Shown: piece after piece, positions 16,996-62,668 of the stretch
Layout: every line of letters starts with the position of its first letter
How positions within the stretch are numbered: the stretch's first letter is position 1
Source: an uncultured archaeon
GTDB lineage: Archaea; Nanobdellota; Nanobdellia; Woesearchaeales; CAIVOO01
DNA: 64,000 nucleotides
Direction: 5' to 3'
Assembly (NCBI GenBank): GCA_903904885.1
Contig: CAIVED010000037.1
Location: forward strand, 2,032 to 66,031
Made by a program: the position numbers and the translations under genes
The notes under the pieces: model-generated
Told to the model about the DNA's origin: nothing
The model's input: the letters and a program-made list of their open reading frames with translations, nothing else
Databases searched by the model: none

Positions 16996-17087
16996 TGGGC
17001 CCGACCGGATTCGAACCGGTGACATACACCTTTCCTGCTTCTTTTGAAAGCTGTAAGGGTGTCGTCATACCGCTAGACCACGGGCCC
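16996..17087 (-). tRNA. tRNA-Val(TAC) with 20-nt intron at 37/38
   Basis: GGGCCCG acceptor, ACACC/GGTGT anticodon stem, TTCGAAT. The BHB central helix is imperfect. Confidence 0.9.
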
Positions 17088-21494: not shown

Positions 21495-21734
21495 ATGAGC
21501 GTTGGGGAACACATACATGTATTTACAACATCAGAATGCAATTTAAACTGTAGCTATTGCTTTGGTCCGAATACGAAATATTCTGATTCCAGGCTTCCTG
21601 AGATTGCCGAGATTCTTGCACAGAATGAAGTTAAGATGGTAACCGCGGGAGGGGGAGAGCCGCGCCTGGTGCTTACATTAAAAAGCACAACCTTTAAAAA
21701 CCACCATTTTTCTTTTAAACCAATGCCCCTGTAG
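21495..21734 (+). pseudogene. truncated radical SAM gene remnant
   Basis: CNLNCSYC and GGGEP, then the frame loses similarity and runs through the tRNA-Glu promoter to a stop inside the tRNA. Confidence 0.7.
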
Positions 21735-21820
21735 TGTAGTCCGGTCAATCATGCCGCCCTTTCAATTCGGGAAACCGACAAAGCAAGGCGGCGACTCGGG
21801 TTCAAATCCCGGCGGGGGCA
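21725..21820 (+). tRNA. tRNA-Glu(TTC) with 21-nt intron at 37/38
   Basis: GCCCCTG/CGGGGGC acceptor, CCGCC/GGCGG stem, intron at 21765-21785 with CTTT/AAAG BHB helix and a GAAA tetraloop. Confidence 0.93.
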
Positions 21821-21868
21821 TATTATCTTAATAACATTTTAAGTATTTATTTGTTTTTCGGCATCATC

Positions 21869-45336: not shown

Positions 45337-47037
45337 CTACTCTTTGACGCTAATAACATCATATATCCTAATCGGCTTCACCTTGCCCTTGACAGTTATT
45401 TCTCCCAGGCTTCTGGCCTTTATTTTATCGCTGATTCGTTGGTATGTTTCTTCGGAAATGATAACCTGCCCTGCCTCTGCCTTGCTGCAGAGCCTTGACG
45501 CTGTGTTGACAGTATCTCCTATGGCAGTGTAGCTTGCCATTTGAACTGAGCCCATGCTGCCGATGACAGCCACTCCAGAATTTATGCCTATGCCCATTCC
45601 CACTTTTTTCTTCTTGCCTTTCTGCATATCAACTATTTTGTCCCGCATTTTTACCGCAGCCTTTACCGCATTAAGGCAGTGGTTTTTGTCAGCCAGGGGA
45701 GCTCCGAATATGGCCATGATGCAGTCCCCTATGTACTTGTCAAGGGTCCCTTTGTTTTCAAAAATAGGCTCGGTCATTCCCCCAAGATATTTGTTCAGCA
45801 TGGCAACAACTTCATGGGGCTTCATGTTTTCAGACATTGAAGTAAACCCTCTTATGTCCGCAAAAATCACTGTTACGTCCTTTTCCTCCCCATTCAGGTC
45901 AATCCTGTCGCTTTTTGTTTTTGAAAGAATCTCATTGACAACATCCTTTGATACATATTTGCTGAAAATCGACTTTATTCTCCTTCTCTCTTTTCCCTCG
46001 GAGAAATAAAAAAGGATTGTTATCCCGACATAGGTTATCGCTATTGCAAGGAATGGGTAAACAATGTTCATTATTATGCCTTTGTCAAATGAATAGACTG
46101 CTAAAAATAAATAGCCGACAAACAATGCTGCGGAAAGCACAGTGGCTGTTAAAAATCTCAGGCAGCAAAGGAGAAGTGCAGTTATGGCCGCAAGCGCGAG
46201 GATTACAGCCAACGCGCTGAGATTTCCCTGCCGGTTTAGAAATCTCTTTGTCAGAAGAGTCTGTATGGCCGAAGCGTGAACCTCAACCCCTACCATGGGC
46301 CTGTCCTGGGAAGTTGGAACGAAAAAATCATCATGCAAATCAGGGGCAGTTGCGCCTATCAGCACAATCTTGTTTTTGAAATCAATATCGCTCCTGCCGT
46401 AATAAACATCCGCAAATGAAACTGTCCTGAAGGTCTTTGGCGGCCCTATGAAATTTATTATGAACCTGTCAAAACCATAGGTTATGTTTTTGTCAAGGTA
46501 TTTCTGCACTATTTTGAGCGCAAAGCTTTGGCTGCTTCCGACAGTAAGCGGGGCTATTCTTGCTATCCCGTCGCTGTCAGCAAAAATATTGATGAAGCCT
46601 GTATCGCTCCTGTTTTCCAGCTCTGCTATGGGCTTCAGAATTTTCCCCGAGACCGATGTCCCGTTTTTTTTATCGAAATCTGCAAATTCTATCGGTATGA
46701 CTGCGTTCAGCCTTGAAAGCGCATTCCCAAGCTCGGCATCAGCTTTTTTATCGTATGGCTCGAAGAATGCAACATCCACACCTATAACCTTGCTTTCGTT
46801 CAGCAGTGGAAGGGCTTTGGCAAAAACCTCCCTGGGCCAGGGCCACCGGCCTATCTCCTGCAAACTATTGTCATCAATTGCTATTATGATTATATTGCTG
46901 AGGGGAGCCTTGGCAGTGTAAAGCGAGTCAGAAAGCTTGTACTCCCAGCCCAGGAAAACCCCTGCGGAGAACAGGGATGCAAGAATGATGAATGCGGCCA
47001 GCGCAACTGCCAGGGAATAAAGTAATTTGCTTCTCAT
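45337..47037 (-). CDS. CHASE2-domain class III adenylate cyclase
   Basis: IAIDDNSLQEIGRWPWPR and GVEVHA (CHASE2), three TM helices, IFADIRGFT, KYIGDCIM, YTAIGDTVNTASRL. Confidence 0.92.
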   Translation of the reverse strand: MRSKLLYSLAVALAAFIILASLFSAGVFLGWEYKLSDSLYTAKAPLSNIIIIAIDDNSLQEIGRWPWPREVFAKALPLLNESKVIGVDVAFFEPYDKKADAELGNALSRLNAVIPIEFADFDKKNGTSVSGKILKPIAELENRSDTGFINIFADSDGIARIAPLTVGSSQSFALKIVQKYLDKNITYGFDRFIINFIGPPKTFRTVSFADVYYGRSDIDFKNKIVLIGATAPDLHDDFFVPTSQDRPMVGVEVHASAIQTLLTKRFLNRQGNLSALAVILALAAITALLLCCLRFLTATVLSAALFVGYLFLAVYSFDKGIIMNIVYPFLAIAITYVGITILFYFSEGKERRRIKSIFSKYVSKDVVNEILSKTKSDRIDLNGEEKDVTVIFADIRGFTSMSENMKPHEVVAMLNKYLGGMTEPIFENKGTLDKYIGDCIMAIFGAPLADKNHCLNAVKAAVKMRDKIVDMQKGKKKKVGMGIGINSGVAVIGSMGSVQMASYTAIGDTVNTASRLCSKAEAGQVIISEETYQRISDKIKARSLGEITVKGKVKPIRIYDVISVKE

Positions 47038-47912
47038 TTCATCTGGGCAAGCCTGGCGTCAATAATCTCAAGCTTTTTGTTAAGCTCTACTATTTTCTCA
47101 GTTATTTTCCTTATCTTTGCGAGCCACATTGTTTTCACAGGGATTTTCCGCTCAACCTCATTAAGGTCCACCTTGCCGGTGTTCACATCATCTATGAACT
47201 GGCTTATGTTTTCATCGGTAAGATTGTTCCGCTTCTTTATTATCCCAATCAGGAATTTTTTCTTTGCCAACTCCCTCATCTGGAGCTGCTCAAGAATTGA
47301 TATTGCCTTTTCTATCCTTCCCCTTGCAAACATCAGCATTCCCCTTGAGATGTTTCCCTCTGAAACCGCACCATTTTTCACAAAGCATGAACGGAATTCT
47401 GTGATGCTCCTGAAATCGGTTTTTCCGATTGCACCGCACTGCACTGTGCCGTCGTCAACATCAATCTGGTCGCCACCCTGGGAAACATTCACCCCGAAGC
47501 CGGTTCCTCTCACGGTTGCAACGCTGTTCGGCGTTTCAACAGTGTACTCCCTTGTGCCGGTCAGCTTGTTAACCCTGTTCCATGTCTCGCCTGATTTCTG
47601 GTTAACTTTTACCTGGCTGGCAACAAGCTGAGCGAGCTCAACCTCTGTATTTGGAGAAAGCTCCATGACATCGCTTTCATAGAAAACAATCGATGCCTGG
47701 CTGTCACTAAGAGTTTTGATGCCGTAATTCTTCCCCAGCTCCATCTGGTCGGTTGCAGCCTGCCATCCGCTTCCTGCATTTACCTGGACATTCCCGGATT
47801 CAATGTTTAGGTATGCAACTGTTTCCGGGCTGCCTGTGAAATAGAAATATGCGCCGATGCCTGCTGCAGCAAGAACAGCTACTATGATTAAAGATATGTA
47901 GACCCCCTTCAT
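47034..47912 (-). CDS. FecR-domain membrane-anchored protein
   Basis: N-terminal TM, SQASIVF..MELSPNT, VETPNSVATVRGTGF, and ATGA overlap with the cyclase. Confidence 0.85.
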   Translation of the reverse strand: MKGVYISLIIVAVLAAAGIGAYFYFTGSPETVAYLNIESGNVQVNAGSGWQAATDQMELGKNYGIKTLSDSQASIVFYESDVMELSPNTEVELAQLVASQVKVNQKSGETWNRVNKLTGTREYTVETPNSVATVRGTGFGVNVSQGGDQIDVDDGTVQCGAIGKTDFRSITEFRSCFVKNGAVSEGNISRGMLMFARGRIEKAISILEQLQMRELAKKKFLIGIIKKRNNLTDENISQFIDDVNTGKVDLNEVERKIPVKTMWLAKIRKITEKIVELNKKLEIIDARLAQMK

Positions 47913-50705: not shown

Positions 50706-51191
50706 TTATAAACGTTTCTGAGAATTAAATAATGCCTGCTCCTCCTTGAGGAGATTAATCTTTCTTTCCCATTCCCTCAGCTCTATCTTGTCTGCAAGGA
50801 ATTCAAACAGCTGCGGCTGGAGCTTGAGGATGTCTTTTCCTGTCAGGAAACCGACCAGCGCCTTCTTGCTCATCACAGGAAGGTGCCTTATGTTCTTGTC
50901 CCTCATTAGGATTATTGCGTCATAAATGTCCTTCTCAGGCGCGATTGTCGGGAAATCCGTCTCAGCAATTTCGCTCGCCAGAATCCTGGAAGGGTCCTTC
51001 TCCTCTGCGACAACCTTTCTTACAATGTCTTTTTCTGTCAAAAGCCCCACGAACTGGTTTGACTTCTTGACAATCAGGGTGCTGACGTGGCTCTCTGCCA
51101 TTATCTCGGCGCATTTTGCTATTGTAATGTTGTATTCCACCGAAATCGGCCTCTGGGTCATGGCATCGCAGACGAGAAATCCGGTTTTCAT
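50706..51191 (-). CDS. CBS-pair domain protein
   Basis: VCDAMT..PISV, VGLLTEKDIVRKVV, IRHLPV..VGFLTGKDIL. ATG 51191 chosen. Confidence 0.9.
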   Translation of the reverse strand: MKTGFLVCDAMTQRPISVEYNITIAKCAEIMAESHVSTLIVKKSNQFVGLLTEKDIVRKVVAEEKDPSRILASEIAETDFPTIAPEKDIYDAIILMRDKNIRHLPVMSKKALVGFLTGKDILKLQPQLFEFLADKIELREWERKINLLKEEQALFNSQKRL

Positions 51192-51249
51192 GGAGGGGTT
51201 AATGAAATAAATTTTAAATAGGTTTGGTATATATAGTATAGAGAGAAAA

Positions 51250-53172
51250 TCAGTAGTTAACCAGAATCTCAACATTAGAGCCGAAGATTTTCTTCAGGTC
51301 CTCAAACAGCTGCTCTTTTATGAAAACCCTGAGCGGAAGCTTCATGTCAGCAATTGCCTTTTCGTATTCCTCATAGGATGATTTTCTTATTCCTGAGATT
51401 CCGCCTTCTTTTGTAACAACCGCTTTTTGAACGGTTTTTTCAGAGGAATCAACATCATCAATTATGAACGCTTCCTTGTCAAGCAGAATCACTTCGCCGT
51501 ATTTGTCTCCGTACTTAACTCTTATCCTTGCCCTTTCCAGCTCCCTTCCCCGTTTTCTCTGCACATATTCAATCATTGCTTTTATGAATACGCCGGCAGT
51601 CTTGCTTATGTTCTGGATTTCTGTTTTTGTGAGCTTCTTTGAATCGTAATCTTTCTTGGCCTTGGCAATATCATCGAATGAGCGCAGAAGCTTCTCCGGC
51701 ATTTTTCCCGTCAGTACCAGCGCATTCTTGAACATTTTTGCCAGCTCTGCATTTTCAATTTTTTCAATGCCCTCAAGCTTTAGCACATCCCTGACAAGGG
51801 AAACTGCAGTATCGTAAATATTAACCACGTTGTCCTCTTCCTTTTTCTTTTCTATGGCAGAGAACAGTTTTTTCAGCCTTGCAAGGTACTTCTCGGCATT
51901 GTCAAGCAGCTCGTCAATTTCCTTGCCGGAAACATTTTTCTTTGTGCCGTGCTCAACATCCTTCCTTATTTTGATTACCTGCTCAAGGGTTTTCATGAAA
52001 TTCTCCTCAAACAATTTCTCCTTCTCTACAAAAATCTCCCTCATAAGTTCGGGAGTTTCTTTCGGTGTTGGCGGGGGAATCCCGTACATCATCAAAGCTG
52101 CCTGGGAAGGCGTCAGCAATGCGTAGAACAAATCCTCTATGCCTATGTCATTCAATTTGAACTGGATTCTTTTTATCAGCTGCTCCCCTGAGCTGAGGTA
52201 CATTTCAATTGCCTCTGCAGAGGGCTTTATCCTGCCCATCTTAAGCAGTTGCTTCCAGGGCATGAAAATTCCCCGGTCATAGAGCGGAACCCCGTCTCTT
52301 AGGAATGTGAATATTACCGGATGCGCCTCCTTGATGGATTCCCAGAAATCAGTAAGGATGTAAACCTGGATGTTGATTTTATTCCTTATGCCGGTCATCT
52401 CGCCTGCCTGGACTCCCATCCCGATTATTATTGCGCGCAGCTTGTCCTTCAGCTCGGCACGTGTCATTCTCTTTACATCTGTATCGTCAATTACTATGAA
52501 AACATCAATGTCAGATTCAGGCGTTGCCTTGCCCTGTACAAGCGAACCCGCAAGAACATAGGCAACTATGTATTTCTCAAATTTCTCAAGCACCATCTTC
52601 TTGTGGACTTCAGCAATTTTGATTGCAGAAAGCATTCCAAGGTCAAAAACCGGGGCGGACATTGCGATTGTCCTAAGCAAATCGTATTTTGCGTCATAGC
52701 ATGACTGCCAGACCTCTGAAAGAAGCAATGGCTGGGGAGCGAATTTTTCATCAATCTCCTTAGCGTTCTTTTCCATGATTGATGTCAATTTTTGTATCAG
52801 CTCTGCCTTGGTCATCTTTTGCGAATCAGAATCATCAATAAGCACAAGGATGTTAATCTTGTCCTTTGCCGAATTCGCCGCTTCTTCTCCCTCGAATTTC
52901 TTTATGTCATCAAGCTCTTTTTGAGTCAATGGAGGCAGAAGAGAAACGCCCATGATGTACTTGCCGAATTTTTTTACTGTTTCATTTGAGAACTTGTCAA
53001 GCTTTTCCTTTACCTGCTTGAGCTTTTCCTGAACCTCTTTCGGGATTCCTGCCTTTTCCAGCATATCTGCAGGAAGCTCCTTGCTGATTGTTTCCCTCAG
53101 CTCAGAATCAGGGGATTTGTCCTTTTCCTTGGATTTTCCCTTGTCCTTTTCATACTTAGAATACTCTGCCAT
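51250..53172 (-). CDS. nucleotidyltransferase (MNT)-HEPN fusion protein with internal duplication
   Basis: AGSLVQG..SDIDVFIVIDD (intact MNT), a preceding degenerate copy KINILVLIDD, and a HEPN-like region with RKDVEH (RX4H). Confidence 0.75.
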   Translation of the reverse strand: MAEYSKYEKDKGKSKEKDKSPDSELRETISKELPADMLEKAGIPKEVQEKLKQVKEKLDKFSNETVKKFGKYIMGVSLLPPLTQKELDDIKKFEGEEAANSAKDKINILVLIDDSDSQKMTKAELIQKLTSIMEKNAKEIDEKFAPQPLLLSEVWQSCYDAKYDLLRTIAMSAPVFDLGMLSAIKIAEVHKKMVLEKFEKYIVAYVLAGSLVQGKATPESDIDVFIVIDDTDVKRMTRAELKDKLRAIIIGMGVQAGEMTGIRNKINIQVYILTDFWESIKEAHPVIFTFLRDGVPLYDRGIFMPWKQLLKMGRIKPSAEAIEMYLSSGEQLIKRIQFKLNDIGIEDLFYALLTPSQAALMMYGIPPPTPKETPELMREIFVEKEKLFEENFMKTLEQVIKIRKDVEHGTKKNVSGKEIDELLDNAEKYLARLKKLFSAIEKKKEEDNVVNIYDTAVSLVRDVLKLEGIEKIENAELAKMFKNALVLTGKMPEKLLRSFDDIAKAKKDYDSKKLTKTEIQNISKTAGVFIKAMIEYVQRKRGRELERARIRVKYGDKYGEVILLDKEAFIIDDVDSSEKTVQKAVVTKEGGISGIRKSSYEEYEKAIADMKLPLRVFIKEQLFEDLKKIFGSNVEILVNY

Positions 53173-59291: not shown

Positions 59292-59322
59292 GAGAAAAAG
59301 CGCTTTCTGTTGTTTTTAAAAC

Positions 59323-60309
59323 TTATGCAATTTCCTGGAACAGGTAACGCGGCAAATACGACTTCTTGTAATACCTGTAGAACTCGATTATATTAAAGGA
59401 CTCTATCAGGTCCTTGAATTCCTGCCTGACCTGCACAATAAGCGACCTTGTTTTGGACCTGTCCGATGATTCCATGTCCATCTCAATGTCCCAGTCGCCG
59501 ACGGTCTTGTTGAACTGGACAATCTCCTTTGTTTTCAGCATGTAGTCAAAAAGCTGCTTTTCTCTCTCGGGGCTGATATTGTGCAGCTTCAGGAAAAGCC
59601 GGAATTTTGCGACCTCAAGCTGGTCTGTGTCAATTGCGTATTTGAACCCCTTGATGATTTTCCGTTTCTGCAGGGTCTTAACCAGCGCCGTAGCTGTCTT
59701 TATGTTGATTCCGCATTTCTTAGCCAGCGTTGTCATCCTCGTCTTTGGTGACTCAAGGAAATTTTTCATTATTGCCAGCTCGTTTTTTTCAAAGGCCTCT
59801 ATGTTCCTGTCCCCCCCGACGAGAATTTCCGGCTTTACGGTGTCCAGCAGGTGGGCATCTTTTGCAAGGTAGGCCCTTGGGTATATGTGGGTTACAAGAT
59901 TAAGGAGAATCTTATAGTTATTCAGCGTCGGGATTTCGTCAATGATTTTTTTAAGCTCCTTGTTGAATCTTGAGGGATTGGGCGACAAAATTTCTATTGC
60001 CAGGTCAAATTCCCCGTTCAACTCGTAAATTGCAACCACATATGGATTCCCGCTCAGCTGGTGGATAATGCTTTCCCTGTCCTTTTCGCTTGAATAGCCG
60101 CCTTTAAAGTAAATCCTGAACAAGATGAGCCCAAAATAAGAATAATCAAATATGCCGTGGCAGTTGTTGACTATTTTCTCTTTCTCCATCAGTTTAATTG
60201 TGTATTTCAGCCTCTGGGGGCTTTTTTTGAGCAGTTTAGCCAAATCACGTATTTTAGAACGGGCATTCTCCGAATAAAGAAATAGCAGGTTCCTGTCGAT
60301 TTGTGCCAT
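59323..60309 (-). CDS. Lrp/AsnC-family regulator with two HTH-RAM modules
   Basis: DRNLLFLYSENARSK..LAK and second HTH PKTRMTTLAKKCG, each followed by a RAM domain (NGEFDL, VGDWDI). Confidence 0.85.
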   Translation of the reverse strand: MAQIDRNLLFLYSENARSKIRDLAKLLKKSPQRLKYTIKLMEKEKIVNNCHGIFDYSYFGLILFRIYFKGGYSSEKDRESIIHQLSGNPYVVAIYELNGEFDLAIEILSPNPSRFNKELKKIIDEIPTLNNYKILLNLVTHIYPRAYLAKDAHLLDTVKPEILVGGDRNIEAFEKNELAIMKNFLESPKTRMTTLAKKCGINIKTATALVKTLQKRKIIKGFKYAIDTDQLEVAKFRLFLKLHNISPEREKQLFDYMLKTKEIVQFNKTVGDWDIEMDMESSDRSKTRSLIVQVRQEFKDLIESFNIIEFYRYYKKSYLPRYLFQEIA

Positions 60310-60417
60310 AGTGGGTGTAAAAGTTTTATTTATTAATAAATCTTTCGCTTTTTAAGGAAAAAAGTAAAAAAATAGCCCTAGTTAAATATAAATATAGATA
60401 AACGTATACTGGAATAC

Positions 60418-61329
60418 ATGACACTGAGATATGAGCATTTTGATGGAGACCTGGGATTTGAAATAGGGGCTTATTTGAAATTCAAAAATCTTAGCGAGTG
60501 CCTTCCTGAAATAATCCGAATGCGCAATGGCGAGATAAATGTAGTTGAGGGCCAGGACAGCACCAGTTTCCCTGAAGATCTCGGCACGCTTATTATTCTT
60601 GACGGAAAAACGCGGGCAGAAATGGAAGCCCAGGGGGCAATATCCCGAGAAGGCGACCGTCTGCCGTTTGAAAGTTTCCGCGGAGTCCCAGGCGCAGAAA
60701 AGTATATCAGAGATCATTACGATGACGGCGCAGTTTTTGTCGACGCCGATAACCAGAAAATTTCACTTGTTGGCCCGGTGATTCCCTCACGAGAAATATC
60801 GCTGAAAACAAATACAAAATATCTTGCGCCTCCGGGGTTTAATGTGGGCTGCAAGGCAAAAGCAGCCATGCTGCTCCCGCTTGAATATGAACTGGTAAGA
60901 ACGACCAGAGTTAGCAGCACTCCAAGGGGCTCCCTTAAAATGGGCAGGGTCGAGGGATTTGGGCAGGAAGGACTGGACATAGAGCTTGAACTTACAGAAG
61001 ACCCTAGCAGAAAAGAATATGCAATATCGCCTGAATTTTTGGGGCTTGACAGCAGAAGCACCAATCCAGAGGTCATAGCCCAATTGGATTTGCTGCGAAA
61101 TGTTGTTCCTGTTCTCAGGGCGTATGAAAACCGCGACTGGGAAAATCCCGTTGAGAAACTCATGATGGTTGACAGGTATGGGAGAATGACCACTGTTTCC
61201 TATGACTCGAAATCCCAGCCAAGAAGCAAAGAAATCCAAACTGCAAAAATTCCTACTAATTTTAGAGAAACCTGCGGCGGAGTTCTCGGTCAACATGAAC
61301 ACCCACTGCATTTGGAACAGGCATACTAA
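60418..61329 (+). CDS. DisA_N/diadenylate-cyclase-like domain protein, divergent
   Basis: LGTLIIL, DDGAVFV (DGA), GCKAKAA in place of GTRHRAA, RVSS. Confidence 0.55.
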   Translation: MTLRYEHFDGDLGFEIGAYLKFKNLSECLPEIIRMRNGEINVVEGQDSTSFPEDLGTLIILDGKTRAEMEAQGAISREGDRLPFESFRGVPGAEKYIRDHYDDGAVFVDADNQKISLVGPVIPSREISLKTNTKYLAPPGFNVGCKAKAAMLLPLEYELVRTTRVSSTPRGSLKMGRVEGFGQEGLDIELELTEDPSRKEYAISPEFLGLDSRSTNPEVIAQLDLLRNVVPVLRAYENRDWENPVEKLMMVDRYGRMTTVSYDSKSQPRSKEIQTAKIPTNFRETCGGVLGQHEHPLHLEQAY

Positions 61330-61379
61330 ACCCAAACTTTTAAATTCTCAAATTTATTTCTTTTCTCTGAGGGGAATTA

Positions 61380-61874
61380 GTGAATGAGCCATACGTCAGT
61401 TCGCCGGTTGGAACAGAGATAAGGTGCACTTTCTATGGAATCCCGGAAAAAGGGCTGCTTGAATCCGGCGAATTTGTAGGAGGAGAGGATTTCCCAGGCT
61501 ACATAACCAGGACATTCAGGCGGATAAGTTTTGAGGCGATTCTTCTTCGCGCGCTTAGGGAGGACGGATTTACAATTTTGAAATCCATGAGCACTAAATT
61601 CGAGCCCAGGGGCTACAGCTGCGCAATCCAGCTTGCCGAGTCAGACATAACAGTCCACACTTACCCGGAGCATGATTCTTTTGTCGTTAAACTTTATACC
61701 TGCCGGAGGCCTTTCGACGGTCGTAGGACAATAGCCAGCCTAATGAGACAGCTAAGGCCTTCGATTGTGGAATTAAAAGAGAGCGCGGTTATAGTAAAGG
61801 AAGGAAATGCAGATGATTACGAATTCAAACTTTCCATAGACTACAAAAATGGAAAATTCAAAAGAAAAAACTAA
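61380..61874 (+). CDS. S-adenosylmethionine decarboxylase-like proenzyme
   Basis: KFEPRGYSCAIQLAESDITVHTYPE..LYTC. The usual ESH is ESD here. Confidence 0.75.
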   Translation: MNEPYVSSPVGTEIRCTFYGIPEKGLLESGEFVGGEDFPGYITRTFRRISFEAILLRALREDGFTILKSMSTKFEPRGYSCAIQLAESDITVHTYPEHDSFVVKLYTCRRPFDGRRTIASLMRQLRPSIVELKESAVIVKEGNADDYEFKLSIDYKNGKFKRKN

Positions 61875-62447
61875 TCATCCTCTGCAGGCTTCAGCTTTTA
61901 TTATCAAAAGCCTCTGGTTGAAGCAGGCATTGTCCTTGCCGTCAACGGTCTTGACAGGAAATGCCGTCATCTCTTCAATCTTGCTTCCTACTTTTGACTC
62001 AAGGTCAGAGATTGAAAAAGAGTATTCTGCAACACCATTATAGTCTGCTTTGGTGTTGTCCTGGAAAATCTTTATGACTTTGTTGACTCCGGTAACATAG
62101 AACACCATTCCGCTTATTCCGTTCTGCCCTGATGCCTTAATTCTTACTTTCAGGTTATCCCCCGACATCTCGCAGGAATTTGGAATCCACCCTATGCTGT
62201 AGACTGATTCGCACATCTTTATCTCCTGAACCTGGGCTTCTGCCGCAGAAGGCGCAGATGTTGTTGCAGGAAGATTTGCCGGTTCAGCCGGAGCCGCTGT
62301 TCCTGTTGAAGGCGTTGAAGCTGCGGGAGTTGCGCTCCCGGTGGCCTCCTGACCCTGCGGCGGATAAATTGTTGTGGTTGTGCCGCAGCCAACCAAGAAC
62401 ATTGAAACTACAAGCAAAACTGCAAAACCGATTATGTATTTTTTCAT
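61875..62447 (-). CDS. putative lipoprotein, paralog of 16089-16700
   Basis: LVGC lipobox, P/T/A linker, and a 4-Cys domain ending ACFNQRLLIIKAEAC. Confidence 0.75.
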   Translation of the reverse strand: MKKYIIGFAVLLVVSMFLVGCGTTTTIYPPQGQEATGSATPAASTPSTGTAAPAEPANLPATTSAPSAAEAQVQEIKMCESVYSIGWIPNSCEMSGDNLKVRIKASGQNGISGMVFYVTGVNKVIKIFQDNTKADYNGVAEYSFSISDLESKVGSKIEEMTAFPVKTVDGKDNACFNQRLLIIKAEACRG

Positions 62448-62527: not shown

Positions 62528-62668
62528 TGGTGGGGCTGCCCGGATTCGAACCGGGGTCGTCCGGTTTTTTGCGTTCCTTGCGAAACGGCCCAAACCGGAA
62601 AGGATGGTTGCTCCAACGCAACCCAGCAAATCCGCTGATTTGCGCTGGCCAAGCTACCCCACAGCCCC
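62528..62668 (-). tRNA. tRNA-Pro(TGG) with 23-nt 37/38 intron, ~41-nt D-loop insertion and encoded CCA
   Basis: GGGGCTG/CAGCCCC acceptor, intron at 62566-62588 with TTTG/CAAA BHB helix, and insertion at about 62605-62646. Confidence 0.87.

Follow-up and report, generated by a model that had tools for sequence, protein, structure and literature searches.

The window analysed here is a stretch of 64,000 nucleotides of contig CAIVED010000037.1 from an uncultured archaeon, and its gene content is archaeal, including genes for eIF2-alpha, GINS51, prefoldin, S19e, L31e, SRP54 and an S-layer protein. The genome that holds it (labelled G000; labels such as G029 and G068 denote the phylum genomes sampled for comparison) is 1.31 Mb in size, with 42% G+C and a completeness of 98.7%. 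Three genes of the window are the subject of this report: gene A, predicted to encode a protein with the fold of a diadenylate cyclase (DAC); gene B, a homologue of S-adenosylmethionine decarboxylases (AdoMetDCs); and a gene for a tandem Lrp/AsnC (FFRP) regulator on the other side of gene A. We found that the conserved partner of gene A is this divergent regulator gene, not gene B. The genes and the region between the divergent pair are as follows.

59323-60309, reverse strand: gene for the tandem Lrp/AsnC (FFRP) regulator, 328 aa, with two complete helix-turn-helix (HTH) plus RAM modules
60310-60417: divergent control region of 108 nt, common to the regulator gene and gene A
60418-61329, forward strand: gene A, 303 aa, predicted DAC-fold protein of an unannotated family
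61380-61874, forward strand: gene B, 164 aa, GTG start, homologue of class 1b AdoMetDC/SpeD-family pyruvoyl decarboxylases

The A family was delimited by an exhaustive HMMER pass over 1.84 billion representatives, which returned seven proteins at E ≤0.001, gene A included. Of 401 sampled genomes of the phylum, 42 gave a family match with the profile made from these seven (A1), three of the matches being weak, and 36 family members were aligned (A2). Analysis of the open reading frames (ORFs) around 30 family loci, with Pfam searches of 120 flanking ORFs, showed that in 26 of them the upstream, divergently oriented neighbour encodes 323-357 aa and carries HTH_24, AsnC_trans_reg and a second HTH; the window protein shares 50-64% identity with 26 orthologues, across orders and into a sister order. 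Two of the other four loci (G302 and G133) stop at contig ends, with a regulator orthologue at the end of another contig in each genome, and two (G034 and G131) have no regulator. Coordinates show divergent pairing in five of ten further family genomes as well (G376, G023, G161, G399 and G197). Altogether the regulator is adjacent to the A family in 31 of 40 credible family genomes, a tally for which the neighbourhoods of G213 and G280 were left out of inspection; the pairing was not seen in G115 and G079, and the family gene of G393 lies at a contig end.

In the window, the regulator exceeds the Pfam cut-offs for HTH_24 (43.6 bits) and AsnC_trans_reg (33.6 bits), and its family profile aligns with Lrp/AsnC proteins of the PDB over residues 3-135 (2dbb) and 166-288 (1ri7, FL11). 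Both halves match FFRPs in the PDB, and the single chain contains two complete Lrp/AsnC modules. PADLOC gave only weak CasR/HTH-type matches for it. A search of the phylum genomes with the regulator alignment (A4), in which matches over 470 bits were taken as orthologues, was bimodal, with 37 genomes over 470 bits and the rest at or below 365 bits. The A family is present in 35 of the 37, 33 of them recognized by the A1 search and two (G236 and G269) by the A2 profile, whereas the other two have a different gene in the slot of gene A: a near-canonical DAC in G068 and a 211-aa protein of unclear affinity in G086. The same-genus genome G067 has neither A nor the tandem FFRP. Genome tallies for the FFRP and for AdoMet_dc include the unpublished genomes G360 and G244, and no specific claim rests on either. 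Among the FFRP-family matches listed, none was a fused FFRP-DAC frame, the longest frame being 405 aa.

A first-pass annotation of this DNA had read genes A and B as a candidate signalling/polyamine module and had not mentioned the tandem Lrp/AsnC gene on the other side of A. What it described of the layout is borne out: A and B are co-oriented, with 50 nt from the stop codon of A to the start of B, and spermidine synthase (PF01564) was found neither in the 58 ORFs of the window nor in the 98.7%-complete genome. The pairing itself does not recur. Using tblastn and Pfam searches of the flanking ORFs, we found an AdoMet_dc gene beside the A family in 1/30 loci, that of the window itself. Anywhere in the genome, an AdoMet_dc gene is present in 16 of the 42 family-bearing genomes, compared with 104 of the 359 others, and in the 15 other genomes with both families it lies on another contig or far away. 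In addition, the B-like gene of G067 (32% identity) stands in an unrelated genomic setting. The annotation had itself held that a lack of co-occurrence elsewhere would refute the module, and such a lack is what was found; the A-B polyamine link is a chance adjacency, and gene B is not part of the module.

Gene A escapes the usual means of annotation. It matches no Pfam family (E values up to 1) and no NCBIfam family, and PF02457, the DAC model, was matched neither by gene A nor anywhere else in G000. Sequence searches of the PDB with gene A, profile A1 and alignment A2 gave nothing significant; a recurrent weak match, 3p2c, a putative glycosyl hydrolase (E 1 with A1 and 0.11 with A2), was judged to be noise. 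Word-based homologue searches returned only gene A itself when gene A was the query and two proteins when profile A1 was used, a search of the genome contigs with the single gene A protein found no relative, and the ESM Atlas gave nothing over 0.87 and no structure for gene A. Within alignment A2, D103, G144 and G176 are invariant in 36/36 members and A150 is nearly so, the consensus motifs being DGA, LPxDF, G-T-K-T-x-x-A and QIKRSxYGxLGMGKV. Two of these, which the first-pass annotation had already noticed as DGA and as GCKAKAA in place of GTRHRAA, are located in the window protein as follows.

60724-60732, forward strand: D103-G104-A105, the retained DAC 'DGA' motif, aligning with the DGA of DACs (D103 in 36/36 members, G104 in at least 90%)
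60847-60867, forward strand: G144-C-K-A-K-A-A150, at the place of DAC G-T-R-H-R/K-A-A, aligning with the GTRH of PF02457-positive proteins

Between the two motifs the family carries an insert of 20-30 residues with the conserved LPxDF. A-type proteins are 18-33% identical, compared with 50-64% for the regulator orthologues.

An AlphaFold2 model of gene A built with the 36-sequence alignment A2 reached a pLDDT of 87.9 and a pTM of 0.85 (a single-sequence run, with a pLDDT of 31, was unusable). In the model, residues ~8-191 make up a DAC domain that is followed by an additional alpha/beta extension (~192-265), and residues 281-303 are disordered. All 37 rows listed by Foldseek (ranks 1-47) were DAC proteins, the best with an E value of 9.6e-4. 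VIA-align superposed the model on residues 15-146 of Thermotoga maritima DisA (4yxm_A) with Z 11.1 and an rmsd of 2.7 Å over 127 residues; 38 DAC entries had Z values of 6.8-11.1, and the next unrelated row had a Z value of 3.2. A search of 48,161 PDB representatives independent of Foldseek also placed DACs at ranks 1-6 (Z 7.3-9.7), with rank 7 at Z 5.1; IMPase/PAPase-type folds, with Z values of 4-5 over residues 9-264, were judged to reflect a common arrangement. As in DACs, DGA precedes a strand (105-109) and G144 opens a helix (145-156). Gene A is therefore predicted to adopt the DAC fold, and the check that the first-pass annotation had proposed, by structure search and profile comparison, came out in favour of that fold.

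Homology, as distinct from fold, is indicated by proteins found through genomic context. In G029, the gene in the slot beside a tandem Lrp gene encodes a 234-aa protein with DGA, GTRH and LSEESG that matches PF02457 over cut-off (35.6 bits); in G068, the slot gene encodes a 188-aa protein with DGA, GTRHIAA and KSD for SEE (PF02457, 23 bits), and it adjoins a clear regulator orthologue behind the same conserved control region. PADLOC gave no match for these two slot DACs, nor for A or B. A profile of the two slot sequences matched canonical archaeal DisA-like DACs (probability 91%, E 1.1e-6) and also the A family (probability 78.9%, E 1.6e-5), with the two DGA motifs in register and GTRH aligned to G-T/C-K-T/A. 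Because these intermediate slot proteins link both profiles, gene A is best described as a degenerate, strongly diverged homologue of the DAC (DisA_N) domain, as judged from sequence comparison. The resemblance that the first-pass annotation saw in the motifs thus goes beyond chance, since model and profiles alike put DGA and G-x-K at the DAC positions; of its proposal of a DAC-fold protein joined to gene B, the fold is upheld (Z 11.1 and the profile links), while the joining fails in all but one of 30 loci. The occupants of the one slot form a graded series, from DGA/GTRH/SEE (G029) through DGA/GTRH/KSD (G068) and DGA/GTKT/[KR]x[ST] to DGA/GCKAK/RVSS (window). Separately, proteins of 211-263 aa at loci L093, L095, L097, L092 and L104 occupy the same divergent slot beside tandem-Lrp paralogues; with EG-I/V for DGA, G-T/G/S-K/R-T/S in the second motif and a weak profile match (E 0.01), they may be still more degenerate relatives of DACs.

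The RHR motif, which binds the ATP phosphates, is not kept, being T-K-T-x in the A family and C-K-A-K in the window protein, with one basic residue throughout the family at the position of the first Arg. In addition, the [KR]-x-[ST]-x-Y-G segment has no conserved acidic residue at the presumed place of the Ser-Glu motif, which provides the metal-binding Glu. Since RHR is replaced and the metal-binding Glu appears to be missing, synthesis of cyclic di-AMP (c-di-AMP) by A is unlikely. In a DisA orthologue, ATP binding and activity are both lost when RHR is changed to AAA (PMC3328451), for which reason, too, cyclase activity of A is considered unlikely. That Asp and Gly are invariant speaks for the retention of a ligand site. 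The A family is an apparently new, previously unannotated DAC-derived family of small-genome (DPANN, Woesearchaeota-type) archaea, probably non-catalytic.

The control region shared by gene A and the regulator is itself conserved. An alignment of 23 loci (A5) showed fixed spacing, a mean column identity of 57% and 11 invariant columns, and the following blocks were recognized in the window; Rfam had nothing in the region.

60328-60341: perfect 14-bp palindrome ATTTATTAATAAAT, centred ~26 nt from the regulator start codon, candidate operator, conserved in A5
60358-60372: A-tract block, consensus AAAAATAAAAAAA, conserved in A5
60386-60397, forward strand: TATA-box-like block ATATAAATATAG, ~27 nt upstream of the gene A ATG
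60404-60410: GTATACT block, close to where transcription of gene A would be expected to begin, with GTATAC in 9/23 aligned loci

The palindrome overlaps the TATA position of the regulator. At up to one mismatch it has one match in the window, compared with 0.04 expected; in the 1.31-Mb genome it has a single exact copy and, at up to one mismatch, seven copies, compared with 1-3 in five shuffles. In the ATATAAATATAG block, alignment columns T80, A81, T84 and A85 are invariant and A82 and A83 nearly so. The TATA role of the blocks is read from the spacing of archaeal promoters, and the distance from ATATAAATATAG to the ATG implies that the predicted mRNA of gene A is leaderless. The positions of the blocks fit two leaderless archaeal promoters, with the candidate operator on the regulator's own TATA box, an arrangement that suggests autorepression and coupled control of A. 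Of the sequencing runs listed for 59300-61900, none is of RNA, and the four DNA runs come from one study.

Gene B matches Pfam AdoMet_dc (PF02675) with 62.5 bits against a cut-off of 25 and the equivalog TIGR03330 with 59.3 bits, under the cut-off of 75.65, and its closest solved relatives are the AdoMetDCs 2iii (E 4.3e-11) and 1tlu. As previously noticed, it keeps the pyruvoyl-forming E-S (E87-S88) and the YTC motif (C108) and has ESD for ESH (D89). H93 lies in VHTYPE, and the His and Cys follow the Ser at +5 and +20, just as H68 and C83 follow S63 in T. maritima AdoMetDC (residues named in PMC10407285). Both prolines of F-x-P-x-G and HT-x-PE are present, and from these residues gene B seems to be a self-processing pyruvoyl decarboxylase of the SpeD family. 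Its N-terminal beta-subunit region is divergent, and D89 and a 19-residue insert in that region are unique to it among 23 aligned homologues; ESH is found in all of its closest relatives (G056, G106, G108 and G067). A word-based homologue search with gene B found only itself. Gene B is the sole AdoMet_dc member in G000, and the four genomes with its closest relatives likewise have no PF01564 match over cut-off; in these, the B-like genes lie in unrelated contexts with no link to polyamine genes.

In PMC10407285 (Li et al. 2023), Arg or Orn decarboxylase activity was demonstrated for SpeE-less SpeD homologues, DPANN proteins among them; the occurrence of SpeD without SpeE predicted such activities correctly in all tested cases, and the diagnostic residues are Gln/Thr/Phe/Tyr for SpeDC and the loss of an AdoMetDC-specific Pro for SpeDA. 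Gene B in G000 is a SpeD homologue without SpeE. Because the genome appears to have no spermidine synthase, gene B more probably decarboxylates Arg or Orn than S-adenosylmethionine, and we lean, if only slightly, towards a changed amino-acid substrate. The absence of PvlArgDC from G000 could be taken to force an Arg-decarboxylase role on gene B, an argument weakened by the presence of decarboxylases dependent on pyridoxal phosphate (PLP) and by the lack of a detectable TiaS_FLD in G000.

Several other polyamine loci came to light. In G000 (C25:17462-19400, locus L004), a deoxyhypusine synthase (DHS) gene is followed immediately by one for a 348-aa group IV PLP decarboxylase with weak LysA-like scores, a possible source, in a genome that has no SpeE, of the polyamine used in hypusination. 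In relatives, single ORFs of ~445-450 aa matching both AdoMet_dc and DHS (L071:1468-2820, L073:538-1866, L081:517-1866 and L085:1468-2802) look like SpeD-DHS fusion proteins, and genes for DHS, a SpeD-like protein and agmatinase stand side by side at L066, L075, L079 and L082. At L134:2950-3785 (G106:C1), two SpeD homologues lie in tandem on one strand, one of the clade of the window gene and one more canonical (78.5 bits), next to a form III-like RuBisCO gene. The SpeD homologues at L087:6446-7027 (G067) and L110/L111 keep Glu-Ser and have no catalytic His (AST or FST for IHT); they may be inactive or use other chemistry.

Taking these data together, we favour, with a probability of about 0.6, a joint reading in which A represents a noncatalytic DAC-derived family tied to a tandem FFRP and controlled through the palindrome, and B an unrelated SpeE-less decarboxylase. 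Gene A and the divergent tandem FFRP form a conserved two-gene unit across the control region of ~108 nt. The regulator would bind ATTTATTAATAAAT and repress itself and, on sensing a small ligand through its RAM domains, would set how strongly A is expressed; A, for its part, most probably still binds an adenine nucleotide and has presumably lost c-di-AMP synthesis. Because relatives hold a near-canonical DAC in the same slot, the ancestral unit may have been an Lrp-controlled c-di-AMP synthase, the enzyme of which later degenerated. A bolder proposal, which we regard as doubtful, is that the pair constitutes an undescribed archaeal circuit from nucleotide signal to transcription: A would either produce or detect an adenine nucleotide, be it c-di-AMP, pApA or a new product; its state would be passed to the double Lrp regulator as a ligand of the RAM domains or by direct binding, and the circuit would descend from an Lrp-controlled true DAC of the kind still present in G029.

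Several observations weigh against the joint reading. Seven family genomes show no FFRP orthologue (G034, G131, G079, G115, G213, G280 and G393, the last with its gene at a contig end), so that A-type proteins can stand alone. The direct comparison of the A family with profile A3, made from 20 canonical archaeal DisA-like proteins of the same phylum, is weak (E 0.0025, probability 11.7%), with GxLIV and DGA in register. The equivalence of the Glu position comes from a non-significant extended alignment (E 0.08) and motif order, not from superposed coordinates. Lys146 and Lys148 of gene A mimic the R-x-R charge pattern, from which some residual nucleotidyl-transfer chemistry may be possible, and the operator and TATA assignments follow from position and conservation in AT-rich DNA. 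As for gene B, its clade differs from the phylum's DHS/agmatinase-linked SpeD type, and two or three genes for PLP-dependent decarboxylases of group IV are present in G000, one beside DHS, so that no pathway gap forces an Arg or Orn role on it.

Other explanations of gene A may be weighed against the same data. If A and B made up a signalling/polyamine module in which A, a DAC-like sensor or scaffold, was coupled to B as a decarboxylase of altered specificity, their common orientation and 50-nt gap, the departure of both from their own families, and a GAGGGG Shine-Dalgarno-like motif 5 nt before the GTG of B, which makes co-transcription possible, would be accounted for; we consider this very improbable, given the 1/30 loci, with B-type genes otherwise on other contigs or far away, the B homologue of A-less G067 and the closest relatives of B in unrelated contexts, and a T-rich tract and a TATA-like TTTTAAATT between the two genes. 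That the DAC resemblance is a chance fold match, A being unrelated to DACs, is barely credible: the absence of any Pfam, NCBIfam or PDB sequence match and the hhalign probability of 11.7% would agree with it, but Z 11.1 is far above the 3.2 of the next unrelated entry with near-complete cover of the domain (DisA 15-146), DGA and the second motif are collinear with those of DACs, and in the same slot, next to orthologous regulators, stand PF02457-positive proteins that connect the families by profile (E 1.6e-5 and 1.1e-6). A more substantial, though still unlikely, alternative is that A remains an active nucleotidyl cyclase or transferase under the tandem FFRP, making c-di-AMP or another nucleotide with Lys in place of Arg. 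The fold, DGA and a basic residue at the first Arg are kept family-wide, three residues are invariant, the window protein has K-x-K where DACs have R-x-R, and the G029 slot gene, with DGA, GTRH and SEE, is the only PF02457 match of its genome. A PF02457 DAC occurs in just one of the 42 family genomes (G393), compared with 87 of 359 others, which would fit functional replacement. We rejected the replacement argument since the complementary distribution follows lineage, with DACs mostly in other orders; within the order, an estimated ~4 family genomes with a DAC were expected and one was seen, so that an anti-correlation is not established. Against activity stand the family consensus, with neither the His, the second Arg nor a conserved acidic residue at the presumed Ser-Glu position; the loss of ATP binding on removal of RHR in a DisA orthologue (PMC3328451); the absence from G000 of a PstA/DarA-type c-di-AMP receptor and of an RCK_C domain; and the fast evolution of the A family (18-33% identity) beside its slow partner (50-64%).

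For gene B, the alternative is an ordinary AdoMetDC whose decarboxylated S-adenosylmethionine is used by an unrecognised aminopropyltransferase. The score over the PF02675 cut-off, the closest solved relatives (2iii and 1tlu), the Ser/His/Cys triad with both prolines, and the presence in G000 of DHS, which normally needs spermidine, would be expected of such an enzyme. The absence of PF01564 from G000, G067, G056, G106 and G108 speaks against it, as do the score under the TIGR03330 cut-off, the divergent beta-subunit region, unique insert and Asp after the pyruvoyl Ser, and the record of SpeD without SpeE as a predictor of Arg or Orn decarboxylases, correct in every case tested (PMC10407285). 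We hold it to be the less likely function, with some claim to attention all the same, and the small remaining share falls to another role or to inactivity.

Outside the A locus, the window has a second nucleotide-signalling gene of this small archaeal genome, encoding a 566-aa fusion of a CHASE2 sensor domain with a class III adenylate/guanylate cyclase domain (45337-47912, reverse strand), with a FecR-like gene directly upstream. At 50706-53172 (reverse strand), a CBS-pair protein comes after one of 640 aa that has a Pol-beta-type nucleotidyltransferase domain. A tRNA-like gene of 141 nt (62528-62668, reverse strand) has an acceptor stem, a T-arm (GGTTCGAATCC), an encoded CCA and a long internal insert, probably one or more introns; it was missed by ARAGORN, and its Rfam tRNA-clan match (26.9 bits) is below threshold. 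Two over-long tRNA calls, at 16996-17087 (reverse strand, 92 nt, anticodon undetermined) and 21724-21821 (forward strand, a 98-nt tRNA-Glu), are both probably intron-bearing.

To our knowledge, archaeal c-di-AMP signalling has been described from very few organisms, and we know of nothing for DPANN archaea. In a literature search, no title or abstract dealt with a DAC-Lrp pair or a degenerate DPANN DAC family; the Galperin 2023 survey of DAC architectures lay outside that search. The work on gene A defines a DAC-derived family missed by current domain libraries, and a graded series in one slot, which is tied to a single, strongly conserved double Lrp regulator and to an operator-like palindrome that is conserved as well. 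The slot would offer a concrete, testable case of a second-messenger synthase becoming a pseudoenzyme or sensor, and the tandem-FFRP/A unit a candidate entry point to gene regulation in organisms that cannot yet be grown. In addition, the DAC-polyamine module is removed as a false lead, and gene B is added as one more SpeE-less SpeD homologue.

Compared with known systems, the A family resembles the DACs (DisA, CdaA/DacA, CdaM and archaeal DisA-like proteins) in its predicted fold over the whole domain, including the N-terminal helix, with DGA before the same strand, a Gly-x-basic motif opening the same helix and Ser/Thr at the Ser of the S-E motif (in the extended alignment with E 0.08). It differs in falling below the Pfam model, in having T-K-T (K-A-K in the window) for RHR and apparently no conserved metal Glu, in its LPxDF-bearing insert and C-terminal extension of ~75 residues, and in being coupled to a tandem Lrp/AsnC gene and not to RadA, CdaR/GlmM or membrane anchors, the known partners of DACs. 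The regulator is like local Lrp/AsnC regulators, for example Pyrococcus FL11 (1ri7), in its HTH plus RAM layout, its divergence from a presumed target and an AT-rich palindrome at its own promoter, but fuses two modules in 328 aa, is unusually conserved and has a DAC-fold gene as fixed partner. Gene B, like the SpeDA (Arg) and SpeDC (Orn) enzymes of PMC10407285, which includes validated DPANN examples, is of class 1b with Ser, His and Cys intact in a genome without spermidine synthase; unlike most of the cases published there, it does not form a cluster with polyamine genes such as speY/DHS or speB. It also belongs to a clade apart from its own phylum's DHS/agmatinase-linked SpeD type, has Asp as the residue next to the pyruvoyl Ser, and carries a 19-residue insert of its own. 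Finally, the minimal DAC PanS of the PanDA defence system, as presented in a preprint (PMC13640721), resembles A in being short, in standing alone as a DAC protein and in belonging to a two-gene unit; it has catalytic activity and is paired with a two-transmembrane (2TM) effector, whereas A has no PADLOC match, has lost the catalytic motifs and is paired with a protein of transcription-factor type.

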